The position numbers and the translations under genes were made by a program. The notes beneath the pieces are model-generated. The model was not told where the DNA came from and did not search any database. It was given only the letters and a program-made list of their open reading frames with translations. A stretch of DNA of 44,709 nt from a virus. Positions 3,314-43,842 of this stretch are shown piece by piece (positions within the stretch are counted from its first letter, which is position 1; every line of letters starts with the position of its first letter). The stretch lies in UHGV virus genome UHGV-0231863; one strand, written 5' to 3'.

Positions 3314-4482
3314 ATATGGCTACAACTCCTTTTAAGGGCGCGAATACTGCGCAATTCTATGTGGCAGAAACTACCCCTGGCGTAACACCGACTAACCCGG
3401 TCTGGTCGCCATTGCGTAACACAGGTGGCGTTCCTGCCATTACCCGCGACACGCTGACCTCCAACGAACTGGACGGCAGCCGTGAAACTACGTCAATCCG
3501 CACCGGTAACAAGCAGGTTAGCGGAGAATACGCTATTGAGCTTAGCTCGAAAAGCCAGGACGACTGGCTGGCGGGTGCTTTAGGCTCTACATGGCAATCC
3601 GGTAGTTCTCTGACCGGGCTATCAATTACCGTCACGCCTGCAGGCAAGACCTTTACCCGTGCCGAAGGTAGCTTTATTTCTGACGGCGTTGAAGTGGGCG
3701 ACCTGATTGCGTTTACCGACTTAACCGGTGACAACGCAAAACCGTTTATCGTAACTGCAGTAGAGGCGCTGGTAGTGACCGGGGCGGGTATCCAGCATAC
3801 CCTGACCACAGAGACAGTAACTACCGCCGCTAAGACAGGGGATAAACTGGAAACGGGAAGCCGGTGCAAGACGTTCTCTATTCTCACCTGGTACAAAGGC
3901 CAGTGCGGCGGGACTGACGCGTACACACTAACCAAAGGCGTGGAAGTTTCTGGTTTTACCATCGAACAGGCTGTTAACGCTATGGTAACTGGCAGCTTCC
4001 CGTTCATCGGTCGCAGTCAGGAGATTCTCACCACGCGGCCGTCTGGTTCTGATTTCTCCTCTGTTACGTTTGGTGACGAGCCATTCTCCTCGGTCGATGT
4101 TTCTGTGTTCGACGGTTCTACGCCGTTGCGTTGCGACAGCCTGACCATCACCAACGACAACAGCGCGTCCGCACAGTTCGAACTCGGCAACACTAACGTA
4201 GCGTTTGTGGAGCGTAGCCGAGCAGCTAACACCTTCTCCATCTCCGGTAAGCTGTACGACATGGCGATGATTCAGAAGTTTATCAACGAGCAGCAGGTGG
4301 AGATTAACTCTATTCTGGCTGGGGTAAACGGGGCTATGTCTTTCAGTTTGAAACGTGCAGAACTTACGGCGGTTACACCTGAGATTGGAGGACCTGAGTC
4401 AATCACTCAGTCTATTGAAGGTCAGGCTACTGGCAACCAGTACCAGTCGTCTATTGTTATTCAGCGTATCACATACGCATAA
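3310..4482 (+). CDS. major tail protein (putative)
   Basis: 390-aa Thr/Ser/Gly-rich beta-type protein, last gene of neck block, followed by a strong terminator. Confidence 0.5.
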   Translation: MNMATTPFKGANTAQFYVAETTPGVTPTNPVWSPLRNTGGVPAITRDTLTSNELDGSRETTSIRTGNKQVSGEYAIELSSKSQDDWLAGALGSTWQSGSSLTGLSITVTPAGKTFTRAEGSFISDGVEVGDLIAFTDLTGDNAKPFIVTAVEALVVTGAGIQHTLTTETVTTAAKTGDKLETGSRCKTFSILTWYKGQCGGTDAYTLTKGVEVSGFTIEQAVNAMVTGSFPFIGRSQEILTTRPSGSDFSSVTFGDEPFSSVDVSVFDGSTPLRCDSLTITNDNSASAQFELGNTNVAFVERSRAANTFSISGKLYDMAMIQKFINEQQVEINSILAGVNGAMSFSLKRAELTAVTPEIGGPESITQSIEGQATGNQYQSSIVIQRITYA

Positions 4483-4486
4483 AACT

Positions 4487-4510
4487 AAGGCCCCGTTTGG
4501 GGCCTTTTTC
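4487..4510. terminator. bidirectional intrinsic terminator
   Basis: AAGGCCCC-gttt-GGGGCCTT hairpin flanked by A-run and T-run at a strand switch. Confidence 0.7.
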
Positions 4511-14053: not shown

Positions 14054-17008
14054 ATGTCAAGCGGATGCGGTGACGTTTTAAGCCTGGCGGATTTACAAAC
14101 CGCCAAGAAACATCAGATTTTCGAGGCCGAGGTTATCACTGGCAAATCCGGCGGTGTCGCCGGTGGTGCCGATATTGATTACGCGACAAATCAGGTTACT
14201 GGACAGACCCAGAAGACGTTACCTGCCGTGTTGCGTGATGCTGGTTTTAAACTGGCAGATTTTGATTTCACGTCAGGCGGTACACTATCCGCTAACGACC
14301 GAAACACCGCAGTTTTGTGGCCGTCGTCCTCTGGCGGTGACGGGGATTGGTACTATTGGTTGGGTGCTCTACCAAAAATTATCCCGGCGTCATCTTCTCC
14401 GCAGTCCACCGGTGGCGTGGCAGATGGGGCGTGGCAGCCTGTCGGGTCGGTCATACTGCGGCAGCAAATATCTGATGTAAACGGTGCAATTCTGTACCCA
14501 GATTTACATGTGGCGCGATGGAAGGACGAATACGACCCGCGCGCATGGGGCGCCGTGGGCGACGGCGTAACTGATGATACTCAATCTATTTTTAATGTAT
14601 TAGCAGCTTCCCCCAACAATTGGATTATAGACGGCAGGGGTTTGACTTATAAAGTTTCCCAATTACCTGACATTAGTAAATTTAAGAATGCTGCATTCGT
14701 TTACGAGCGCGTAGCCGGGCAACCGCTTACTTATGTAGCTGATGGCTTCTTTAACGGCTCACTAACTAAGGTGACGGATACCCCGTTCTACAACGCATGG
14801 ACGCAGGATAAAACTTTCGTCTACGACCATGTTATTTACGCCCCGTTTATGGCGGGCGAACGACATGGTGTTCAAAACTTACATGTAGCTTGGGTTCGCT
14901 CTGGAGACGACGGGCAGACTTGGTCAATGCCTGAGTGGTTGACTCCAATCCATGCTGACTATAATGCTAGTGTTTCTACGGACAGAGTTAACTACCACTG
15001 CATGAGCATGGGTACGTGCGGCAACCGATTATATGCAGTTATAGAAACCCGCTACTTATCTAATATGCAGATGAAGAAGGCAGAACTTTGGTCACGCCCA
15101 ATGCCGTATTTTAGACACCCAACCGGCGGAATAACTATTAGTTCTGGCTCCACTACTGCTACCATTGTCATAGAAAATCATGGCCTAAAAGCAGGAGATG
15201 CGGTTAACTTCTCTAATACATCGGCAACCGGCGTATCGGGTAATATGACGGTTGCGTCTATAATTAACCGAAATACGTTCACTGTTACGCTCTCAAGCCC
15301 TGCGGGCTCCACCATAAACAATGCGGGGGTTACCTGGAACTTCGCAACGCGATTCTGGGACAGCCCATGGGAAATTACCGAATTGCCGGGGGTGGCATAC
15401 TCCACTAACGCTGATTTGTGTGTCACGGAGACACATAGTTTTGCGGTTATAGATGATGCTAACTACACTATCGCTGTCGGCTATCACAACGGCGATGTGT
15501 CTCCTCGGCGTCTCGGTGTCTTGTATTTTAGTAACGTGTATGACAATCCAGGCGTATTCGTTCGTCGCACTGTCGCTCAGGCATACGCTGATAACGCTTC
15601 TGAGCCGTGTGTGAAAAGTTATGGCGGTGTGCTCTACCTTACCACACGCGGCACATTACCTACTTCCCCCGGCTCTACACTGGCGATGAGCACCGATTCT
15701 GGGCAAAACTGGAGCTACTTGCGATTCCCGAACAATGTACATCACTCCAATCTTCCGTTCGCTAAAGTAGGTGACTATCTCTACATCTTTGGTACAGAAC
15801 GTGCATTTGGTGAGTGGGAAGGTGGCGAGCCGGACAGCCGCTATGAAGGTTCGTATCCGAGGACCTTTATGTGCAAAGTCGATGTGTCGTCCTGGCCTTC
15901 ATCTTTAGATGATGTTCAGTGGTTTAATATTACCGACCAAATATACCAGGGCCATATCGTTAACACTGCCGTCGGCGTCGGCTCTGTCTGTGTTAAAGAT
16001 GGCTGGTTGTACTATATCTTTGGAGGGGAAGACTTCTTCTCTCCCTGGAGCATCGGGGATAACAGTGCGAGGTTATGGTACAAACATGATGGGCACCCGG
16101 CTGACTTATATAGCTACCGGATAAAGATTGAAGACCACCCGTATGTATCACGTGATTTCAAATACGGAGCAACTCCTAACCGTACAATACCTGTCGCCAT
16201 GGGGGTAGATGGTGTACGCCATGTAGAAGCACCTTTAACGTTTGACAATGATGTAAGCGTGTACTCCCTGCATGTAACTGGTCTGGAATACGATGGCACA
16301 CAACAGTCTGCCGTGCGTGCACGGTTTGATGGTGATTACGGGCTGATTTCAAAAACAGTCCCCACTAAAACCCCATCGGGTCAAAGACTGATAGTTAGCG
16401 GTGGTGATGGTGCATCCCGTTCCGATGGTGCGTTGCTGCAACTGTACGGGGCAAACAATGCAACACCTAACAGGGCTATTATGTATGCGTCAGGAGGCTT
16501 CTACTCATACAACAATTTCCTTCCTTACTTAGACTCGCAAGTGTCTTTAGGTTCGGCGGGTAATAGGTGGACTACGGTGTACGCTACCACCGGTACGATA
16601 AACACGTCTGATGGTACACTTAAGACGAACAAAGAGGAAATTGAGGGACAACTCCTTACCGCATGGGAGGATATACATGTAATATCTTTTAAGTGGCTTG
16701 AAAGCCTAGCAATCAAGGGTGACACTGCAAGGATACACTTCGGTGTGATAGCCCAAGATGTGCGAGACATCTTGGTCAACCATGGGCTTATGGAGGAGGG
16801 TTCTACAGACTGTAAATATGCTTTCTTGTGCTACGACTCAATTGAAGCTACGTATGATATTGATGAAGATGGTCAGACTGTACAAGTACCCCCTCCCGGC
16901 GGCAGATGGGGGGTTAGGGCGGACCAGATGTTCTTCATAGAGATTGCGTATCAGCGTAAGAAGATGCGCGAGTTCGAGAAGAGGCTGGCAGCGCTAGAAG
17001 CCAAATAA
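14054..17008 (+). CDS. tailspike with sialidase-type (Asp-box) domain and C-terminal intramolecular chaperone
   Basis: GAVGDGVTDDT entry motif; two Asp-boxes SGDDGQTW and STDSGQNW; C-terminal SDGTLKTNKEEIEG auto-cleaving chaperone motif; central part AT-rich. Confidence 0.75.
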   Translation: MSSGCGDVLSLADLQTAKKHQIFEAEVITGKSGGVAGGADIDYATNQVTGQTQKTLPAVLRDAGFKLADFDFTSGGTLSANDRNTAVLWPSSSGGDGDWYYWLGALPKIIPASSSPQSTGGVADGAWQPVGSVILRQQISDVNGAILYPDLHVARWKDEYDPRAWGAVGDGVTDDTQSIFNVLAASPNNWIIDGRGLTYKVSQLPDISKFKNAAFVYERVAGQPLTYVADGFFNGSLTKVTDTPFYNAWTQDKTFVYDHVIYAPFMAGERHGVQNLHVAWVRSGDDGQTWSMPEWLTPIHADYNASVSTDRVNYHCMSMGTCGNRLYAVIETRYLSNMQMKKAELWSRPMPYFRHPTGGITISSGSTTATIVIENHGLKAGDAVNFSNTSATGVSGNMTVASIINRNTFTVTLSSPAGSTINNAGVTWNFATRFWDSPWEITELPGVAYSTNADLCVTETHSFAVIDDANYTIAVGYHNGDVSPRRLGVLYFSNVYDNPGVFVRRTVAQAYADNASEPCVKSYGGVLYLTTRGTLPTSPGSTLAMSTDSGQNWSYLRFPNNVHHSNLPFAKVGDYLYIFGTERAFGEWEGGEPDSRYEGSYPRTFMCKVDVSSWPSSLDDVQWFNITDQIYQGHIVNTAVGVGSVCVKDGWLYYIFGGEDFFSPWSIGDNSARLWYKHDGHPADLYSYRIKIEDHPYVSRDFKYGATPNRTIPVAMGVDGVRHVEAPLTFDNDVSVYSLHVTGLEYDGTQQSAVRARFDGDYGLISKTVPTKTPSGQRLIVSGGDGASRSDGALLQLYGANNATPNRAIMYASGGFYSYNNFLPYLDSQVSLGSAGNRWTTVYATTGTINTSDGTLKTNKEEIEGQLLTAWEDIHVISFKWLESLAIKGDTARIHFGVIAQDVRDILVNHGLMEEGSTDCKYAFLCYDSIEATYDIDEDGQTVQVPPPGGRWGVRADQMFFIEIAYQRKKMREFEKRLAALEAK

Positions 17009-17012
17009 AACT

Positions 17013-17036
17013 AAGGCCCCTTTCGGGGCCTTTTCT
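17013..17036. terminator. bidirectional intrinsic terminator
   Basis: AAGGCCCC-tttc-GGGGCCTT + TTTCT between convergent tailspike and leftward operon. Confidence 0.7.
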
Positions 17037-28166: not shown

Positions 28167-28400
28167 CTAGCGTTGGGGTTTCTTTTGTCTACGCACCGCA
28201 TTAACCCACTCTCCTTCGCTACGGTAAAAACTGCAATCAAGGATATCCTCTATAGAAAATTTAACTATTTTAGTGGGTCCACAAAAGTTATAAGGGAAAA
28301 GTTCTACATAACACCCATCGTCGGTTATATTTGACGCAATCTTGAAATAATATTTAATGCTGCCGTCTTCGCGGAAGCTACAACCCATACGCCCAATCAT
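28167..28400 (-). CDS. hypothetical protein
   Basis: 77-aa ORF between AlpA-like gene and primase. Confidence 0.4.
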   Translation of the reverse strand: MIGRMGCSFREDGSIKYYFKIASNITDDGCYVELFPYNFCGPTKIVKFSIEDILDCSFYRSEGEWVNAVRRQKKPQR

Positions 28401-28579
28401 TTCACGTTCTCCTTAATCCACTCTTCAACTTTATTACGGTCGAATGTTCCCGGTAAACGGCGACCCATAACCTTAATACAGCAATCCGGGAATTTACCAC
28501 TGCGCAACCAGTTATTAATTGTCTGACGCGTCACCCCGATACGCTCGGCTACTTCATTCTGTGTCATGTAATGTTGCAT
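28397..28579 (-). CDS. AlpA/Xis-like winged-helix DNA-binding protein
   Basis: MTQNEVAERIGVTRQTINNWLRSGKFP; AGGAG SD before internal ATG at 28579; first gene of the leftward operon. Confidence 0.6.
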   Translation of the reverse strand: MQHYMTQNEVAERIGVTRQTINNWLRSGKFPDCCIKVMGRRLPGTFDRNKVEEWIKENVK

Positions 28580-28686: not shown

Positions 28687-28715
28687 TTGACTTTTACTTA
28701 AAAATATGGTAAGCT
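28687..28715 (+). promoter_or_regulatory. promoter TTGACT-17-TAAGCT (copy 1 of duplicated cassette) with palindrome AAGCTCAGcCTGAGCTT
   Basis: Plus strand; palindrome 28711-28727 overlaps -10; followed by identical 38-mer shared with 41272-41309. Confidence 0.45.
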
Positions 28716-28718
28716 CAG

Positions 28719-28756
28719 CCTGAGCTTGTGAAGTATGAACAAGCGACCGCGGCGCG
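28719..28756 (+). repeat. 38-nt block identical to 41272-41309 (copy 1)
   Basis: CCTGAGCTTGTGAAGTATGAACAAGCGACCGCGGCGCG; contains hairpin GCTTGT-gaagtatga-ACAAGC and ATG of micro-ORF MNKRPRR. Confidence 0.85.
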
Positions 28757-28901
28757 CGGCGGGCGAAACGAGCACGTGTAGCGTGTGGAGTGAGGCTCGC
28801 TGGCGCGTTTGGGAGGCCCAAAGTCTATTGTAATTCCCGCCTAAATATCTAAGTTACTGATTTGCCGTTGGTTATATCCGCAAGCTCACTCACTCACTCT
28901 T

Positions 28902-28938
28902 GGTGCCTTCGGCACCACGTTCGTTTCGTTTCGCTTGC
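28902..28938 (+). terminator. UUCG-tetraloop hairpin plus U-rich tract
   Basis: GGTGCC-ttcg-GGCACC followed by ACGTTCGTTTCGTTTCGCTT; preceded by (CTCA)x3. Confidence 0.45.
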
Positions 28939-28983: not shown

Positions 28984-29012
28984 TTGCACACACCAACATA
29001 ATAGGATACTAT
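28984..29012 (+). promoter_or_regulatory. promoter TTGCAC-17-TACTAT with operator AATAGgataCTATT (29000-29013)
   Basis: CTTGCACACaccaacataataggaTACTATTCAC then conserved AAACGAGA leader and GGAG SD. Confidence 0.55.
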
Positions 29013-29046
29013 TCACTTATCGAAACGAGACAGAGGAGTGAGGGCT

Positions 29047-30342: not shown

Positions 30343-30480
30343 ATGGGCTGGTACGGTAGCTGGACTTTAGGCGAACCGGTAGACGCTTACGAAATAATTA
30401 GTAGCACTTCGGTGTGTGACGGCGACACTAAATCGCTGCTAGTCGGGGTGGATGAGAAAAGGGGTGAAGCTGATGAGTAA
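30343..30480 (+). CDS. hypothetical early protein
   Basis: 45-codon ORF directly downstream of promoter cassette at 30284-30312; stop overlaps next start. Confidence 0.35.
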   Translation: MGWYGSWTLGEPVDAYEIISSTSVCDGDTKSLLVGVDEKRGEADE

Positions 30481-31018
30481 CAAAAACGAAATATTCGAGT
30501 ACCTGATCGACCAGCTACGGCAGCAGGTAAATAACAGCCGGAGCGAAGACCTGGCTCATGAGGTGCAGTCACTTAAGAATCAGTTACGTGATGCTTCGGC
30601 GCAGATTAAGGAGTTGCGGGAAGACAACATTAAGAAATCTGAGCACATATCGCACCTGACATGGCAAGTTAAGGAGTTGCATCTGGCATTGGCCGAGGCT
30701 ACTGGTGACGTGGAGGCATACAAACTTATCCGCAAAGGTGCGTACGGTTCGGAGCAATCTGGTTGCCGAAAAGAAGATACGCAGGAATGTGACCACAATT
30801 GGATTATCGCTCCAGGATTGTTTATCGCCGAAGGCCACAAGGACAACGTGCCCGGTAGCCGGTTTTGCTGCGAATGCGGCAAGCGTGAGTGGGACGGACT
30901 TGAGTATGGGGCAACAGCCTGTACACAGGAGTGCAAACACAGTTTCTATTATGTAATAACAGATGGCTCAGCGCCGTTCGGTACGAAAGTATGTAAAACG
31001 TGCGGGGAATACTTCTGA
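30473..31018 (+). CDS. coiled-coil protein with C-terminal Cys-rich (zinc-binding-like) domain
   Basis: N-terminal heptad region; C-terminal CDHNW, CCECGK, CTQEC, CKTCGEYF. Confidence 0.5.
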   Translation: MSNKNEIFEYLIDQLRQQVNNSRSEDLAHEVQSLKNQLRDASAQIKELREDNIKKSEHISHLTWQVKELHLALAEATGDVEAYKLIRKGAYGSEQSGCRKEDTQECDHNWIIAPGLFIAEGHKDNVPGSRFCCECGKREWDGLEYGATACTQECKHSFYYVITDGSAPFGTKVCKTCGEYF

Positions 31019-36456: not shown

Positions 36457-37926
36457 ATGTTAACTATGAACGGTCAGAATCAGGGTGTTAAGACAAAACA
36501 CCGGGAATGGCTGCATCACTTCGATAAATGGCAGAAGGTGCGCCACGCACTGGAGGGTGACCTTATCCGCTATCTGCGAAACGTCGGGAAGAACGAGCCG
36601 GACCCAACTTATGCAGCCCAGCGCCAGGAAGAATACGAGAACGGCGCTATCTGCTACAATTTCACCAAGCGTACCCTGTCGGGTATGGTTGGCTCGGTAA
36701 TGCGAAAAGACCCGGAGCAGATTATTCCACGTGAACTGGAATACCTGTTACGCAATGCCGATGGCTCGGGTGTCGGCCTGTGGCAGCACGCGCAGGATAC
36801 GCTGATGGAGATTGACTCGGTGGGTCGTGGCGGTTTACTGGTGGATGCGCCGGAGACAGCGGCAGCGACGGCAGCCGAACAGAACGCCGGATTATTAAAC
36901 CCGGTCATCGCATTCTATACCGCAGAGAACATCATCAACTGGCGACTCACTCGCGTAGGCTCTGTTAACCGCGTTACGATGGTAGTGCTGCGTGAGGTAT
37001 GGGAATATTCAGAACCTCGAGCCGAGTTTGAAACCAAGTTTGGGGAACAATACCGCGTTCTCGACTTGATTGACGGGCGCTACCGTCAGCGCATATACCG
37101 ATTCGATGCGGAAGGCGGCGCGCAAGACGAAGTAATAGAAATCTTCCCGGAACTGGGCGAACAGTTGCGCGGCAAAATCCCGTTCACGTTCATCGGGGCC
37201 AGCAACAACGACGCGACGGTTGATGACGCGCCTTTGCTGCCGTTAGCTGAGCTTAATATCGGGCATTTTCGCAACAGCGCAGACAATGAGGAATCTAGCT
37301 TCGTTGTAGGCCAGCCCACTCTGTTCATCGCCCCCGGTGAGAACATGAGCATGGTACAATGGAAAGAAGCCAACCCTCGCGGAGTGCGTATGGGGTCACG
37401 TTCTGGCCATAACATCGGTTACGGCGGCAATGCGTTTCTGGTCCAGGCCGGTGAGAACAACCTAGCCAAGCAGAACATGTTGGATAAAGAGAACCAGGCC
37501 ATCCAGATTGGGGCGCAGCTTATCACCCCGACGCAGCAAATCACCGCGGAATCGGCCCGCCTGCAACGCGGAGCGGATACGTCTGTTATGGCGACAATCG
37601 CACGTAACGTAAGCATGGCGTATACCGATGCGTTGCGCTGGGTCGCGGGTATGCTTGGGATTAGCGACAGCACTGAAATTGAGTTCAAACTGAACATGGA
37701 GTTCTTCCTGCAACCGATGACAGCTCAGGACCGTTCTCAGTGGATGGCGGATATTAACGCTGGCTTGTTACCAGCTACTGCTTACTACGCCGCGCTGCGT
37801 AAGGCTGGCGTAACCGACTGGACCGATGAGGACATTCAGAACGCTATTGAGGACGCACCGCTGCCGTTGGGTGTAAATACTCAGGTAGCGGGGGATATTC
37901 CGCAGTCGGCGCAACAACAGGAGTAG
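36457..37926 (+). CDS. portal protein
   Basis: 489-aa protein directly after terminase, acidic C-terminus. Confidence 0.8.
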   Translation: MLTMNGQNQGVKTKHREWLHHFDKWQKVRHALEGDLIRYLRNVGKNEPDPTYAAQRQEEYENGAICYNFTKRTLSGMVGSVMRKDPEQIIPRELEYLLRNADGSGVGLWQHAQDTLMEIDSVGRGGLLVDAPETAAATAAEQNAGLLNPVIAFYTAENIINWRLTRVGSVNRVTMVVLREVWEYSEPRAEFETKFGEQYRVLDLIDGRYRQRIYRFDAEGGAQDEVIEIFPELGEQLRGKIPFTFIGASNNDATVDDAPLLPLAELNIGHFRNSADNEESSFVVGQPTLFIAPGENMSMVQWKEANPRGVRMGSRSGHNIGYGGNAFLVQAGENNLAKQNMLDKENQAIQIGAQLITPTQQITAESARLQRGADTSVMATIARNVSMAYTDALRWVAGMLGISDSTEIEFKLNMEFFLQPMTAQDRSQWMADINAGLLPATAYYAALRKAGVTDWTDEDIQNAIEDAPLPLGVNTQVAGDIPQSAQQQE

Positions 37927-37931
37927 ATAGA

Positions 37932-37955
37932 AAGGCCCCGCTAGGGGCCTTAGCT
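37932..37955. terminator. bidirectional terminator-like hairpin
   Basis: AAGGCCCC-gcta-GGGGCCTT between convergent portal and KilA-N genes; same stem as 4487 and 17013. Confidence 0.55.
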
Positions 37956-38751: not shown

Positions 38752-40689
38752 ATGAGCTTACTGACATCTCTAATCAGCCACCAGATTTGGCTGCAACGCG
38801 CCGCATCCGGTGAAGTAAAAGACCTCGCACCATTCATTCAGGAAATGCGGGACGAAATCAAACGGCAGGTGCTGCTATTCGGCGACGACGGCCGCAGCAC
38901 CGCACGGCTGAATAAACTGTTACGTGACCTTGAAGAAGCTCTGACGGGGCTCACAGGTGACTGGCAAACAAAGCTGACAGAAGACCTTAAGGAACTGGCG
39001 GCGTATGAGGCTGAGTGGAACGTAAAGACACTGGCCACCAACGTTAACGCGGAATTTGTTACGCCTACCGCCGAGCAAGTGTGGGCCGCTGCCGAGTTTC
39101 AGCCGCTATCGTTAAGTGACAAGCCTGTTGATTTCACTAAGCTAATGTCAGGCTGGGGTGAAACCGAAGTCGCGCGCCTTGTGACCGGCGTTAAGATGGG
39201 CTTTGTACAAGGCCAGACAACACGGCAGATTGTTAAGAATGTCGTAGGCGCTGGTGGGCTGGCGGACATCTCTGAGCGTAACGCAGCTACGGTAATACGC
39301 ACCGCGCTGTCTCATGTATCCAACGAAGCCCGTAACGAGACGTACCGCCAGAACGATGACATCATCGAGAAATACGAGTGGGTGTCGACGCTGGACAGCC
39401 GTACCAGTACAACGTGTTTCACGGCTGAAACAGAATTAGCGCCCATCGCGGGGATGGACGCGGTAATGCGCGGACTCTATTCAGGAAAAATCCTTACCAT
39501 CGAACTTTCCAACGGCGAGAAGTTCAGTGGCACCCCGAAACACCCTGTACTCACGCAATACGGATGGACTCCGCTTGATGAACTCGACCCAACTAAGCAT
39601 GTCTTGTATACCACTGTTGACAAAGTGACTGTGCTCGAAACAGTGAAGAACATAAACATGCCAGCCAGAGCGGATTATATTTTTAATACGCTCGCTGATT
39701 TCCCCATCAGGAAAATGGTAAGCACGAGTCCCGCGGCAACAGATTTCTATGGCGATGGAGTGGGACTCAATGGCAAAATCGACATTGTACGGGCCGATTG
39801 CAAACTGCGGAACTACGTCCATGCCAGCGGAATTAAACAATTCAAAAGCGAGGGTTTCAGTCTTATTCATAGCGCCGCTTTGCTGTCGGACGATAGCTCT
39901 GGCGATTTTCTCCTCCGGGGTGAATGTCCTGTGAGTGTGCCCGCGCTTAGCGAGGCCAAGTGTTTTGACCATAGAATAGAAAACTGTTTTGCTTACTTGG
40001 GTCCTTCTTATGCACTCAATAGGCGGGACGCCGGACTCGAACAATTCTATAGCCCTTTTTTGATTCAAAATGGTGTCGTTAGAAACCCAACCACGGGGTC
40101 GATCATGCATGAGTCCGAGCTTCTTGAGAAATGTTGTTACCGTGGTGGTAGTGACGCCGTAATTCTTGGCTATGATGCTGGCGGGAGTGCCATCTCGGTA
40201 CAAAGAACAAATATCATCCGCATAAGCGTCGAGTTTAGAACGTGCCATGTTTATACCCTCTCTAGTAGTCAAGGATATTATACAGCAGGTAGTGCGATAG
40301 TCAAGAATTGCAGGGCCAGAGACGGGATGACGTGGGAAATCGGTAAAGGGCCGATGCCTCCGGCCCATTTTGGGTGCAGAAGCACCACTGCGCCTGTAAT
40401 CAGTTCGGAGTTCGACTTCCTCGATAAAGGCGCAAAACGCGCGGCTAAGGGTGCGGACGGCGGTATGCAGGTAAGTGCGGACACCACCTATTACGAGTTC
40501 CTGAAACAACAACCGGCATGGTTTCAGGACCAGGCGCTTGGTCCTGTTCGCGGTAAGATTTTCCGCAACAGCGGTATATCACCAGAGGAGTTTCGCGTAA
40601 TATCTGTAGATGGTTTCGGGAATCCGCTCACGCTTAAGCAGATGGCGGAACTCGATAAACGTGTTGCTGATTATCTGAAAGGGGAATAA
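38752..40689 (+). CDS. head morphogenesis protein (Mu F / SPP1 gp7-like) interrupted by an intein
   Basis: Extein junction reconstitutes DSRTSTT|CRARDGMTW...PPAHFGCRSTT, matching the D-x-R-x-R...H...G...CRC-type Mu F motif; 298 in-frame codons are inserted. Confidence 0.8.
   Translation: MSLLTSLISHQIWLQRAASGEVKDLAPFIQEMRDEIKRQVLLFGDDGRSTARLNKLLRDLEEALTGLTGDWQTKLTEDLKELAAYEAEWNVKTLATNVNAEFVTPTAEQVWAAAEFQPLSLSDKPVDFTKLMSGWGETEVARLVTGVKMGFVQGQTTRQIVKNVVGAGGLADISERNAATVIRTALSHVSNEARNETYRQNDDIIEKYEWVSTLDSRTSTTCFTAETELAPIAGMDAVMRGLYSGKILTIELSNGEKFSGTPKHPVLTQYGWTPLDELDPTKHVLYTTVDKVTVLETVKNINMPARADYIFNTLADFPIRKMVSTSPAATDFYGDGVGLNGKIDIVRADCKLRNYVHASGIKQFKSEGFSLIHSAALLSDDSSGDFLLRGECPVSVPALSEAKCFDHRIENCFAYLGPSYALNRRDAGLEQFYSPFLIQNGVVRNPTTGSIMHESELLEKCCYRGGSDAVILGYDAGGSAISVQRTNIIRISVEFRTCHVYTLSSSQGYYTAGSAIVKNCRARDGMTWEIGKGPMPPAHFGCRSTTAPVISSEFDFLDKGAKRAAKGADGGMQVSADTTYYEFLKQQPAWFQDQALGPVRGKIFRNSGISPEEFRVISVDGFGNPLTLKQMAELDKRVADYLKGE
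39481..40248 (-). CDS. antisense-nested gene: tandem HTH + DUF559/Vsr-like endonuclease-fold protein
   Basis: Minus-strand ORF from ATG 40248 (antisense to His499 codon) with GAGGG SD and TTGACT-16-TATAAT promoter; IIAKNYGVTTTTVTTFLKKLGL and IECIRRTQVSKTVFYSMVKTLGL HTH-like; QFAIGPYNVDFAIESHSIAIEI...GWHVYVL matches DUF559 pattern. Confidence 0.55.
   Translation of the reverse strand: MARSKLDAYADDICSLYRDGTPASIIAKNYGVTTTTVTTFLKKLGLMHDRPRGWVSNDTILNQKRAIELFESGVPPIECIRRTQVSKTVFYSMVKTLGLAKRGHTHRTFTPEEKIARAIVRQQSGAMNKTETLAFELFNSAGMDVVPQFAIGPYNVDFAIESHSIAIEICCRGTRAYHFPDGEISERIKNIIRSGWHVYVLHCFEHSHFVNSGIQDMLSWVEFIKRSPSVLREYRVFRGATELLAVGKFDGKDFS
40277..40304 (-). promoter_or_regulatory. sigma70-type promoter TTGACT-16-TATAAT for the antisense intein-nested gene
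   Basis: Minus strand reads TTGACTatcgcactacctgctgTATAAT, then GAGGG SD and ATG; lies within the intein C-terminal coding region. Confidence 0.55.
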
Positions 40690-41150
40690 TGATGGGCTTT
40701 TTCAAAGTAACTGACGTACCGTCACGCCGCGTAGTCCAGTACGCCCGCGTGTCTGGCTCTGGCGAGAACGTGGTGTTTATTGAAGACGAAAGTGTACTCG
40801 GAACACCAGTTGACGATATGCCGTTTGCGGACAAGACCGGTATTGCGCTGCCAGCGGCAGGTATGCTTTATGAGATTCAGTACCTGGCGGATGCCGGTGA
40901 TGTGTATTTCTCCGTACAACCGCAGGACGCTGAACTGGCAGACGGCAGCGCAAATATCGCTGTCGAAGTTAAGGCGGGCAAAGCACCATATGCGCTGACC
41001 TGGTACAAAGACGGGAAGGAAGTGGTAAACGCCCCGGAAGAGGCTCTGTCTCTGACGGTTAACGCAGTTGGTGAATACTTCGTTAAAGTCACTGATGCCG
41101 ATGGTATAGAGGCCGTAAGTAAAGCAGCGAAGGTTACTAAGCCAGAATAA
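40689..41150 (+). CDS. Ig-like domain virion protein
   Basis: C-terminal YALTWYKDGKEV...GEYFVKVTD pattern typical of Ig-like phage surface domains. Confidence 0.45.
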   Translation: MMGFFKVTDVPSRRVVQYARVSGSGENVVFIEDESVLGTPVDDMPFADKTGIALPAAGMLYEIQYLADAGDVYFSVQPQDAELADGSANIAVEVKAGKAPYALTWYKDGKEVVNAPEEALSLTVNAVGEYFVKVTDADGIEAVSKAAKVTKPE

Positions 41151-41154
41151 ACTG

Positions 41155-41176
41155 AAGCCCCGAAAGGGGCTTTTTA
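41155..41176 (+). terminator. intrinsic terminator
   Basis: AAGCCCC-gaaa-GGGGCTT + TTTAG. Confidence 0.6.
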
Positions 41177-41225
41177 GTGCCTGTGACTATTCCAGTTATT
41201 CCACTCAATTGTAAATGTTGGAATA

Positions 41226-41268
41226 AACTATTCGAATAGTTGACTTTTCACCAAAAATGTGCTAAGCT
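41226..41268 (+). promoter_or_regulatory. promoter TTGACT-17-TAAGCT (copy 2 of duplicated cassette) preceded by 16-bp palindrome AACTATTCGAATAGTT
   Basis: Palindrome 41226-41241 abuts -35 at 41240-41245; -10 at 41263-41268. Confidence 0.45.
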
Positions 41269-41271
41269 CCA

Positions 41272-41309
41272 CCTGAGCTTGTGAAGTATGAACAAGCGAC
41301 CGCGGCGCG
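41272..41309 (+). repeat. 38-nt block identical to 28719-28756 (copy 2)
   Basis: Same 38-mer downstream of homologous promoter; flanks diverge immediately afterwards. Confidence 0.85.
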
Positions 41310-41493
41310 GGCAGGTAACGGAGCGGGACGTAAGTCCTGAGTGTAGTTACGCTGACGCGTTCGGAAGGGCCATACCCTATTGCTTGTGTAAAAAGTAACT
41401 GGTTTACTGAGATTACGCCGTTTCTATGTTTAAATGATAAGGACTAGCGCCCCGCTTTAAGGCGGGGCTTTACTTATCGAGAAAGGGGGAAAC

Positions 41494-41880
41494 ATGAATC
41501 TTAAAGCAACTGTCGTAGCGGGGGCATGTTTCATCATCCTGGCTTACGCACACGGCATCTACCAGTATCGCAGCGGCTGGAACGAAGGCCGGGCGAATCT
41601 CGTTTCGCAGCAACAGCAGAAAGCACAGGCTGAGTTAGCGAAGAAAACACAACGGCAGCAGCAGGATGAATCAAAGGCCGCAGCCGCTGACAACGAAGGC
41701 AAGACGAAATCAGAGGTAATCACCCGTGAAGTCGTTAAGTACATTAAAACGCCTGGTCGCAGCGTGTGCACTTTTGACCCTGAGCGCGTGCAGCTCAAGT
41801 CCCGCGCCGTCGCAAACGCCAATTCCATCCCCGGATACGACGATGATGCAGCCGCCGTGCAAACTGGCGCCGCCAAGTAG
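41494..41880 (+). CDS. Rz: i-spanin (Rz-like)
   Basis: N-terminal TM helix then Gln/Ala-rich coiled coil; overlaps an out-of-frame lipoprotein ORF. Confidence 0.6.
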   Translation: MNLKATVVAGACFIILAYAHGIYQYRSGWNEGRANLVSQQQQKAQAELAKKTQRQQQDESKAAAADNEGKTKSEVITREVVKYIKTPGRSVCTFDPERVQLKSRAVANANSIPGYDDDAAAVQTGAAK

Positions 41881-41989
41881 CGACGCTGACGAGGATTTAG
41901 CTACCGACGTCCGGAACGCCGAATGCGCACGGCAACTGCGCCTGAAAGTATTCCAGTTGCAGGATTATGTGAGGAATATTCTGGAATAG
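41726..41989 (+). CDS. Rz1: o-spanin (Rz1-like lipoprotein)
   Basis: +1-frame ORF inside Rz; lipobox LTLSAC, Pro-rich mature region; apparent GTG start. Confidence 0.55.
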   Translation: MKSLSTLKRLVAACALLTLSACSSSPAPSQTPIPSPDTTMMQPPCKLAPPSSDADEDLATDVRNAECARQLRLKVFQLQDYVRNILE

Positions 41990-42018
41990 TTGCCTTGCAT
42001 GTTGGAATAATTTATTCT
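41990..42018 (+). promoter_or_regulatory. possible promoter TTGCCT-17-TATTCT upstream of scaffold/capsid genes
   Basis: Weak match; shares upstream ATGTTGGAATAA with region at 41213. Confidence 0.25.
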
Positions 42019-42071
42019 TGACATGTAAATCCGGGTGGCCCGGGTTCCAACGTCCAGGGGACATACTGACT

Positions 42072-42773
42072 ATGAATCGTTTTTTACGTTATCCGTTCCA
42101 GGAAGAAGCTGGAGCAGAAGATAAATCAGGCGGCGGTGACGCACCTAAAATGTACACAGCCGAAGAAGTGCAGGCGCTGATTGAGAAAGAAGTCGCCGGG
42201 CTTAAGGCTAACCAGGAAGCATTGCTGAACGAGAAGAAAGAAGCCGCTCGTAAAGCAAAAGAGGCCGAAGAAGAGCGGCAGCGTGCACACCAGGAGGCCC
42301 TGAAAGCCGCCGGTAAGATGGACGAGTTCGAAAAGACGATTCGTAGCCAGTATGACCCGGTGTTAGCCGAGAAAGATGGTCGCATCTCCAGAATGGCAGA
42401 GCGCATCCTCGGCAGCGAACGCAAAGCGGTGTTAGGTTCTTTCGCGGGTGACTTCATTACCCCGGAAGCAGTAGACATTCTCGCGCCGTTCGTTAAGACT
42501 GAGTTTGAAGGTGATGATGTGGTTACTAAGTTTGTCGGCGCGGATGGCAACGTAGTCACAACTGACCCGGAACAGTTCCGCAAATACCTGCGCGAACATA
42601 AAGCGTTTTCGCATTTGATTAAAGCAAATGCAGCTTCCGGCGGCGGGGCTTCCGGTAGCAAAGGCGGCGGGGCCGCACCAGCGTTTAAAGACATGAGTGA
42701 AGCAGAGCGTTTAGCCCTGTATAAATCGAACCCTGCCGAATTTGAACGGCAACTTAAAGCCCTGAGGAAATAA
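42072..42773 (+). CDS. scaffolding protein (putative)
   Basis: Internal ATG of track ORF; highly charged Ala/Glu/Lys coiled-coil protein immediately upstream of capsid gene. Confidence 0.6.
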   Translation: MNRFLRYPFQEEAGAEDKSGGGDAPKMYTAEEVQALIEKEVAGLKANQEALLNEKKEAARKAKEAEEERQRAHQEALKAAGKMDEFEKTIRSQYDPVLAEKDGRISRMAERILGSERKAVLGSFAGDFITPEAVDILAPFVKTEFEGDDVVTKFVGADGNVVTTDPEQFRKYLREHKAFSHLIKANAASGGGASGSKGGGAAPAFKDMSEAERLALYKSNPAEFERQLKALRK

Positions 42774-43825: not shown

Positions 43826-43842
43826 GGTTAAGATATAATCGA

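Follow-up and report, generated by a model that had tools for sequence, protein, structure and literature searches.

A conserved promoter and a covarying leader RNA in front of the spanin genes of Kagunavirus and related phages: a possible attenuation or antitermination cassette of the late operon

The window, that is, the whole 44,709-nucleotide stretch of UHGV virus genome UHGV-0231863 analyzed here, is a complete, circularly permuted Kagunavirus genome (Guernseyvirinae). The region under study shows 93–98% identity to phages such as K1G and vB-Eco-KMB36, and the gene order was taken from the open reading frames and from the annotations of these phages (Table 1). On the upstream side, a GC hairpin with a T-run closes the terminase–portal–Hoc block; it is a member of a four-copy family (D1) sited at the ends of gene blocks, and its minus-strand version was flagged by a terminator scan. 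As this terminator-like hairpin ends the upstream block, the genes downstream of it need a promoter of their own. The original prediction had placed in front of the spanin genes the second copy of a duplicated promoter–leader cassette, with a palindrome, a promoter, a 38-mer, a 36-codon open reading frame and a hairpin just before Rz, and all of these elements were found where it had put them. The published transcriptome of Kagunavirus K1B4 reports expression per gene, too coarse a scale to resolve the leader.

Table 1. Positions of the leader region in front of Rz, its neighbours and its related sites in the window.
Feature	Position	Strand or direction	Description
Replication block	17.2–28.6 kb	leftward	
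Rightward block	from 28.7 kb	rightward	small early genes, holins, endolysin, terminase, portal, head-morphogenesis protein, Hoc-like protein
Copy 1 of the cassette	28687–28917	+	promoter 28687–28715, 38-mer, diverged P2–P4 hairpin to ~28811, (CTCA)n run, 3' hairpin
3' hairpin of copy 1	28901–28917	+	GGUGCC-UUCG-GGCACC; ends at ~+196
GC hairpin with T-run	41146–41175		AAGCCCCGAAAGGGGCTTTTT; closes the terminase–portal–Hoc block
YTATTC(C/G) heptamer cluster	41187–41239		candidate regulator-binding array: CTATTCC 41187, TTATTCC 41196, inverted GGAATAA 41220, CTATTCG 41228, inverted CGAATAG 41233
Perfect 16-bp palindrome	41226–41241		AACTATTCGAATAGTT; overlaps the first two bases of the -35
Sigma70-type promoter	41240–41268	+	-35 TTGACT 41240–41245, 17-nt spacer, TG 41260–41261, -10 TAAGCT 41263–41268
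38-mer	41272–41309	+	identical to 28719–28756; spans the predicted start site, stem I and the 5' strand of P2
Stem I, 5'-terminal hairpin	41277–41297	+	GCUUGU-GAAGUAUGA-ACAAGC; starts at ~+3, ends at ~+23
Micro-ORF	41288–41398	+	MNKRPRRGQ..., 36 codons; judged not a gene
Irregular hairpin P2–P3–P4	41300–41364	+	65 nt, ~+26 to +90; internal loops conserved
Single-stranded junction	41365–41385	+	AAGGGCC...CUAUUG; conserved
Linker (3' module)	41386–41448	+	AU-rich, C-poor; words ..AGUAACUG.. and GAUU.CGCCGU common to copy 1 and Jersey leaders
GC hairpin and tail	41449–41477	+	GCCCCGC-UUUAAG-GCGGGGC (41449–41468) and tail UUUACUUAU; terminator-like; ends at ~+194
Shine-Dalgarno and ATG of i-spanin Rz	41481–41496	+	AAGGGGGA; ATG at 41494
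Rz/Rz1, scaffold, major capsid and tail genes	downstream of the leader region		
Sister promoter, upstream of the scaffold gene	41977–42018	+	dyad TATTC-TG-GAATA 41977–41988, -35 TTGCCT 41990–41995, 17-nt spacer, -10 TATTCT 42013–42018

The leader occurs upstream of the spanin genes in ~450 related phages, and in all clades it is located in front of Rz. The K-type leader is present in 181 phage records, 180 of them at 95–99% identity, which is above the 80–94% of the neighbouring spanin–scaffold DNA in the same phages; in S119 the leader has 98.1% identity and the flanking DNA 82.8%, and in SETP13 the values are 97.7 and 80.0%. This set includes 65 Salmonella phages whose spanin–scaffold DNA is only 80–88% identical to that of the window. 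With blastn, 43 more match places than records were obtained, and the Jersey-type leader was found in 269 records, once in each. More distant leaders lie at the same position in Shemara, phiEap-2 and the Serratia phages, and these have in common the style of the P3–P4 hairpin and a GGAAGGG junction word, the most widely conserved element across the clades.

The -35, TG and -10 elements of the promoter are invariant across the relatives, and the spacer varies. An equivalent layout stands in Jersey (TWGACT-17-TGtTACGCT) and in phiEap-2 (TGGACT-17-TGaTAACCT), so that the promoter of the original prediction is kept in front of Rz in three clades. Its -10 is weak, with three of six consensus positions, which is why a simple promoter scan missed it, and transcription is predicted to start at ~41275–41276, 41275 being 7 nt past the -10. 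The TTGMCT-N17-TAnnCT format occurs three times in the window, where 0.16 would be expected. One of these is the sister promoter upstream of the scaffold gene, whose dyad adjoins its -35 and is kept in Jersey; the 13-mer GAATAGTTGMCTT has exact matches only at 41234 and 41984, i.e., in the leader promoter and the scaffold promoter. The scaffold promoter can add transcription of the genes further downstream. Around the predicted start of the leader, TGAGCT at -1 to +5 is a near-repeat of the K-type -10, without the essential A at position 2, and in the Jersey type an exact repeat of the -10 (TACGCT-acc-TACGCT) spans the start site.

The palindrome consists of two abutting inverted CTATTC words, which are the last two of the cluster of five heptamers, and it is centred at -41.5 relative to the predicted start. 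Although it is the sole perfect 16-bp palindrome of the window, shuffled genomes had a mean of 0.73 such palindromes and at least one in 53% of cases, so that the palindrome alone is not significant; CTATT-N2-AATAG, which occurs once in the window, was found at least once in 4 of 100 shuffles. The cluster is a different matter: the window total of 23 YTATTC(C/G) heptamers is not enriched, but five of them fall within the 53 bp from 41187 to 41239, which is not expected by chance. The palindrome is kept in K-type leaders save for occasional single changes. The 269 Jersey-type phages lack it and have CTTTATTCAAAAAGT in its place; Jersey itself retains the first four heptamers. In Enterobacter phage phiEap-2 the heptamer array is larger and runs into the promoter. 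The regulatory role that the original prediction gave to the palindrome is consistent with the TATTC cluster, the -41.5 centre and the sister dyad, and it is plausibly a regulator site of the late promoters, but it is not a universal feature of the leader promoter, as the Jersey type shows.

The original prediction also took the palindrome as a further use of the specificity of an early operator. The early motif itself, AATAG-N4-CTATT, is real (6 sites against 0.05 expected), with the correction that the sites sit in the spacer and -10 of two classes of sigma70 promoters, TTGACA-N4-AATAGnnnnCTAT-TATAGT (leftward) and TTGCAC-N10-AATAGGnTACTATTCA. The pentamers are shared with the palindrome, but there they have the opposite orientation and a spacing of 2 nt (0 nt when read as TATTC/GAATA), and the half-sites are 7 bp apart from centre to centre against 9 bp in the early sites. 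Because of this difference in orientation and spacing, identical binding of both arrangements by one rigid dimer would be unlikely. Pentamers related to the dyads of the late promoters lie inside early promoters.

Among known regulatory sites, class II activator sites such as those of CRP or FNR are centred at -41.5, and phage regulators such as phi29 p4 act both as activators and as repressors. The arrangement seen here is similar in that a dyad at -41.5/-42.5 adjoins the -35 of two promoters with a non-consensus -10. It differs in that the -35 is already near consensus and that the dyad is absent from the Jersey-type leader promoter; moreover, the dyad is a candidate site, with a half-site orientation unlike that of the early sites. 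The sole DNA-binding protein recognised among the early open reading frames, at 28397–28579 on the minus strand and divergent from copy 1, is an HTH_17 protein of 60 aa, for which a PDB sequence search gave weak, generic HTH matches only. The other early products include a Cys-rich protein of 188 aa (30452–31018). Against Pfam and PHROGs, the 19 early open reading frames matched only HTH_17, DUF551, DUF7438 and PHROGs of unknown function.

The main feature of the region, which the original prediction missed, is a covarying structured leader RNA that comprises stem I, the P2–P3–P4 hairpin and the GC hairpin before Rz; in other respects its interpretation is partly supported. Stem I is 100% paired, with one change from U-A to U-G, and the Jersey type has a different small hairpin, ACGC-UUUC-AGCGU, in its position. 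It is followed by the irregular hairpin, in which P2 is CCG.GGCGCG/CGCGUU.CGG, P3 is CAGGUAAC/GUUAC.CUG and P4 is CGGGAC-GUAA-GUCCUG, and the single-sequence minimum free energy (MFE) folds of seven variants agree on stem I and P2–P3–P4. With 30 distinct K-type sequences aligned by MAFFT, 94.4% of the cells were paired, compared with 29–41% with slid partners, and five pairs changed on both sides. When the Jersey type was included, 13 of 29 pairs changed on both sides, with 0 of 500 shuffles as high and 27–45% in slid controls, in an alignment that was guided by the model and hence leans towards it, and with covariation drawn from few clades of closely related phages. As several of the pairs are G-U, the structure fits the plus strand only. 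The closing helix P2 is not evident in phiEap-2 or Shemara. In the Serratia phages Otaku and Smarc3, the apparent closing helix takes in the putative -10.

A search of the whole window against Rfam gave no match at the gathering threshold, sensitive scans of both leaders gave only chance-level matches (E 0.9–9), and ARAGORN found no tRNA and no tmRNA. An additional pairing between the 5' end and the stretch between the GC hairpin and the Shine-Dalgarno sequence was proposed by RNAalifold, with 99% pairing and 5 of 10 pairs differing between K and Jersey types. We regard this long-range pairing as tentative, since it is drawn from two lineages and is energetically weak: it was not present in the MFE folds, and its duplex energy against shuffles was significant in the K type only (0.010; 0.08–0.49 in other clades), a comparison confounded by the arms of the GC hairpin. 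A riboswitch-type alternative pairing of the 3' module with P3 was considered and dropped; the K2 and K1 candidates involved opposite strands.

The micro-ORF of the original prediction is indeed present in the window, but it does not hold as a gene: in five relatives (L003, L005, L009, L013 and L055) it is frameshifted or shortened to 9 or 17 codons, and the Jersey type lacks it. Its ATG is in the loop of stem I and has no spaced Shine-Dalgarno sequence, and the reading frames of the two copies of the leader share only MNKRPRR and then diverge completely, with the RNA pairing kept. Judged from its sequence and its variation, the leader is a non-coding structured RNA of ~200 bases and not a gene. 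In related phages it is often annotated as a hypothetical protein.

At the 3' end of the leader, the GC hairpin (GCCCCGC-TTTAAG-GCGGGGC in the DNA) is followed by TTTACTTAT and, as predicted, lies just before Rz, at a distance of 25 nt. With an 8-bp stem, seven GC pairs and six U in 9 nt, it is the best terminator-like site of the region, and its stem covaries across relatives (GCCCCGC/GCGGGGC, GCCCGGC/GCCGGGC, GCCCUGC/GCAGGGC and GCCCGAC/GUCGGGC, with CG/GC/UA and GC/AU exchanges). The gap of 25 nt has no room for a promoter and another terminator-like hairpin lies just ahead of the cassette, so transcription from the leader promoter through the leader is the evident route to the spanin genes, and the K-type leader appears to be arranged as a promoter-proximal attenuator. 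Across clades the U-run is not conserved: it is poor in Shemara and in the 269 phages of the Jersey type (UUAGCGUAU). No comparable hairpin was found in Serratia phage Otaku, so what is conserved in the hairpin may be a role other than termination.

The duplication claimed by the original prediction was confirmed, with 89% identity over 70 nt between 28687–28756 and 41240–41309 and with the identical 38-mer within it. The duplicated segment begins exactly at the -35, the identity peaks from -10 to +45, and a weaker homology extends for ~170 nt. Copy 1 scores 98 bits with the RNA covariance model, has no upstream TATTC sites, and is followed by a second promoter at ~28986–29013. Both copies end in a GC hairpin at ~+195 although their linkers differ, and hairpins of the P2–P4 type occur only at these two places in the genome. 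The order of the copies had to be reversed: copy 1 is present only in a subset of Kagunaviruses, and the complete K1G and Jersey genomes have the late copy only, with a different leader at the early-right promoter, so that "copy 2" is the ancestral and universal one. Copy 1 appears to be a later transfer of the promoter and the 5' RNA module to the head of the other rightward operon. Identical P3/P4 alleles were seen in certain variants of copy 1 and of copy 2 (L009 and L022), so the copies may have exchanged sequence.

Considering these results, we have proposed a tentative model in which the region would be an attenuation or antitermination cassette of the late operon (spanin, scaffold, capsid and tail genes), with a cis-acting RNA that modifies read-through, comparable in its working to HK022 put or lambda PR'-tR'. 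This is the reading that we prefer, though with modest confidence. The sigma70 RNA polymerase of the host would start at ~41275 from the extended -10 promoter, and the TATTC-type repeats, including the palindrome, at the upstream edge of the promoter would offer a possible binding site to a phage regulator. Over its first ~90 nt the transcript would fold into the 5'-terminal hairpin and the long irregular hairpin, and ~80 nt further on the GC hairpin with its short U-run would act as an attenuator just before the ribosome-binding site of Rz. As HK022 put does, the 5' module of two hairpins would act in cis on the polymerase that transcribes it, and would set the number of polymerases that pass the leader hairpin and later terminators within the late operon, for example the one at 43841 after the capsid gene. 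A module that acts in cis would also explain why the promoter and the 5' module behave as a portable unit, copied to the head of the other rightward operon. A device made of RNA only would give no timing unless the promoter were regulated as well.

The closest known likeness is found in HK022, where putL starts at ~+3, forms two stem-loops with a weak -10-like NANNAT word, and comes with a similar second copy, so that each phage has one behind each of two promoters (PMC9378689). Like putL and putR, the leader is a promoter-proximal nascent RNA that starts a few nucleotides from +1, has two bulged stem-loops with a weak -10-like word in stem I (AAGTAT, 41284–41289, ~+10 to +15, in the loop), and exists as two related copies heading two long operons with terminators downstream (PMC9378689). 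The start at +3, the NANNAT word in the first loop and the two copies at operon heads match putL/putR and thus favour a cis-acting RNA; AAGTAT as a pause signal is what we infer from this word. There are differences: put has 74 nt and belongs to a lambdoid phage, the 5' RNA module of the leader has ~90 nt and belongs to a virulent siphophage, and, unlike in HK022, two copies are present only in a subset of relatives. With R1, the covariance model of the leader RNA, no match up to an E value of 10 was found in the 25.5–36 kb of HK022 that hold putL, located by means of the primers of PMC9378689, and the expected position of putR, in what is a one-way test. A decamer common to putL and copy 1, GCGCGGCGGG, was judged to be a chance match in GC-rich stems. 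A stronger form of the model, which we think doubtful, is that the 5' module forms a second put-like family of RNAs, with no relation to HK022 put, that binds its own polymerase and makes it resistant to terminators, that is carried by several hundred virulent Guernseyvirinae phages, and that moves with the promoter between operon heads.

Late genes can also be reached by protein-mediated antitermination, for which the PR'–tR' layout of lambda is the familiar example. Under an explanation of the lambda Q, 21Q or AlpA type, an early phage protein would bind at or near the promoter, be loaded onto the polymerase at a sigma-dependent, promoter-proximal pause, and take it past the leader hairpin and on to the late genes; loading would then occur at the identical segment from -35 to +45. 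We consider this rather unlikely, even though it would supply the timing and much of the K-type layout agrees with it: as in Pseudomonas aeruginosa PalpB-tB, a sigma70 promoter and a -10-like initially transcribed word are followed by a ~190-nt leader, a putative weak intrinsic terminator within ~200 nt, and lysis or morphogenesis genes, and tB of the alp system is also weak and NusA-dependent (PMC9371919). The lambda PR'-qut-6S RNA-tR' region has this arrangement as well. AAGTAT in the K type, TGAGCT at -1 to +5, the exact -10 repeat of the Jersey type and the peak of identity between the copies from -10 to +45 could all fit such a protein-loading model, yet TGAGCT lacks the A that is essential at position 2. 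Homologues of Q, 21Q, 82Q, N and AlpA were not found among the 19 early open reading frames with Pfam and PHROGs, although Q families are diverse and this absence is no proof, and the 60-aa HTH_17 protein is much smaller than AlpA or Q. In addition, the DNA site of Q/AlpA systems is between -35 and -10, whereas the candidate site here is upstream of the -35 and is lacking in copy 1. These systems need no covarying structured RNA, and the selection for the P2–P4 structure would be left unexplained.

The transcripts of T7, early and late, are processed at RNase III hairpins, and the region resembles these in having, within an untranslated leader, an irregular hairpin with internal loops and about two helical turns. 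The long hairpin (~23 bp in all) might then be an RNase III or RNase E site, with the 5' hairpin and the GC hairpin before Rz protecting the ends of the late mRNA. This processing or stability element seems to us an unlikely account as a whole, but several observations agree with it, namely the conserved internal loops, the 5'-terminal hairpin at +3, the long untranslated leader with its C-poor linker, and the conservation of the GC hairpin without its U-tract, as would be expected of a protective stem more than of a terminator. The possible pairing of the 5' end with the stretch before the Shine-Dalgarno sequence would also fit, but it is the weak two-lineage pairing described above. Unlike the many sites of T7, only two such hairpins occur per genome and they are always promoter-proximal, and the extreme conservation of unpaired bases, with loops and linker nearly identical across 180 phages, exceeds what a stability element would be expected to need.

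A trans-acting small RNA and a leader-peptide attenuator are less likely than the explanations above. A stand-alone phage RNA of ~195 nt, acting in trans on a host or phage target and with read-through into Rz as an incidental event, would account for the separate promoter, the terminator-like 3' hairpin, the strong conservation along the whole length, the second, diverged copy and the lack of coding potential; we nevertheless find it improbable, because, without a promoter between hairpin and Rz, expression of the late genes requires read-through, most relatives have a tail that makes a poor terminator, the unit stands before Rz in all clades, and no target was identified. Control of hairpin formation by translation of the micro-ORF is highly improbable, for although the frame is open in both copies of the window and MNKRPRR is common to them, it is broken in five relatives and missing in the Jersey type, diverges after residue 7 where the RNA pairing is kept, has no spaced Shine-Dalgarno sequence and ends 50 nt before the hairpin.

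Members of the Guernseyvirinae (Kagunavirus, Jerseyvirus and relatives) rank among the most frequent phage isolates for therapy and biocontrol against Escherichia coli and Salmonella. Three elements are defined here for them: a structured RNA, so far unannotated, at the head of the late operon in ~450 sequenced genomes, a distinct promoter class (TTGMCT-N17-TAnnCT), and a repeat motif of TATTC type at a pair of late promoters. Should the RNA itself act on the polymerase, HK022 put would be the only earlier phage example, and if a protein is needed instead, the cassette would mark the place where a new Q-like factor could be sought; either way, it could provide a compact and portable promoter–leader unit for the engineering of these phages. 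In a degenerate-pattern scan of metagenomes and genomes, the matches listed were mostly chance, GC-rich ones, and among them the model filter left only Kagunavirus-like contigs and one contig of a "Bacillota" MAG that was probably mis-binned.

Both leaders, that of copy 1 at the head of the early-right operon and the late one upstream of the spanin gene Rz, are followed by the 9-mer ACTTATCGA (29016-29024 and 41470-41478, respectively), which in each case lies just 5' of the Shine-Dalgarno sequence that serves the first post-leader gene. The word is kept at both leaders despite the divergence between it and the shared 38-mer, and it is partly complementary to the leader 5' end. Sigma70-type promoters carrying an AATAG-N4-CTATT palindrome inside the spacer and -10 fall into two families. 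One such promoter (approximately 28986-29013) sits downstream of the copy 1 leader and ahead of the first early-right gene, and the early-right operon therefore has tandem promoters. A (CTCA)n tetranucleotide run (28885-28900) was also observed in the copy 1 leader, immediately 5' of its hairpin; its copy number is variable, with three units here versus six in another Kagunavirus (L006, 4168 onward).

Many GenBank records label the leader as "hypothetical protein," including gp08 of phage Jersey (L064, 7265-7456). The annotated ORF of Jersey gp08 starts upstream of the -10, and these calls over the leader are therefore probably spurious. A copy-1-type leader was also detected (2130-2251, 106 bits) on a 6.2-kb contig (L261) binned as a Bacillota MAG, which is probably a mis-binned Kagunavirus fragment.

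At the upstream edge of the late leader promoter, a leftward promoter-like site overlaps the TATTC repeats, and Jersey has a matching layout, TTTACA-18-TGgAATAAT. The predicted direction of firing of this site is into the hairpin at 41155-41172. Four similar GC hairpins, of the GGCCCC-N4-GGGGCC type, are located at the ends of gene blocks, where they are probably bidirectional terminators. At 41949-42071, GGAATA/TATTC words (ATTCCAGTT, GGAATATTCTGGAATAG, and GGAATAATTTATTC) form a second cluster, which overlaps the Rz1 3' end as well as a promoter-like sequence, and this region is kept in Jersey.

The early 188-aa protein, whose PHROG has no assigned function, is a candidate zinc-binding regulator. 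The annotation of a close relative places an intein within the head-morphogenesis gene.

Coordinates and layout of the features in the window
Feature	Position	Strand or direction	Remarks
AATAG-N4-CTATT promoters	19705, 23259, 25408	leftward	
AATAG-N4-CTATT promoters, others	6936, 29000, 30300		
Early 188-aa protein	30452-31018		N-terminal coiled-coil-like part; Cys-rich C-terminus (CCECG, CKTCG)
Promoter-like TTTACA-18-TGgAATAGT	41186-41215	minus, leftward	overlaps TATTC repeats
GC hairpin family	4479-4508, 17005-17034, 37924-37953, 41146-41175		
Head-morphogenesis gene	38752-40689	+	~300 codons longer than counterpart in the relative K1G
343-aa ORF	39481-40512	-	inside head-morphogenesis gene, opposite strand
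Promoter-like TTGCCT-17-TATTCT			overlapped by GGAATA/TATTC cluster
Hairpin CCGGG-UGG-CCCGG			3' of GGAATA/TATTC cluster, 5' of scaffold ATG at 42072
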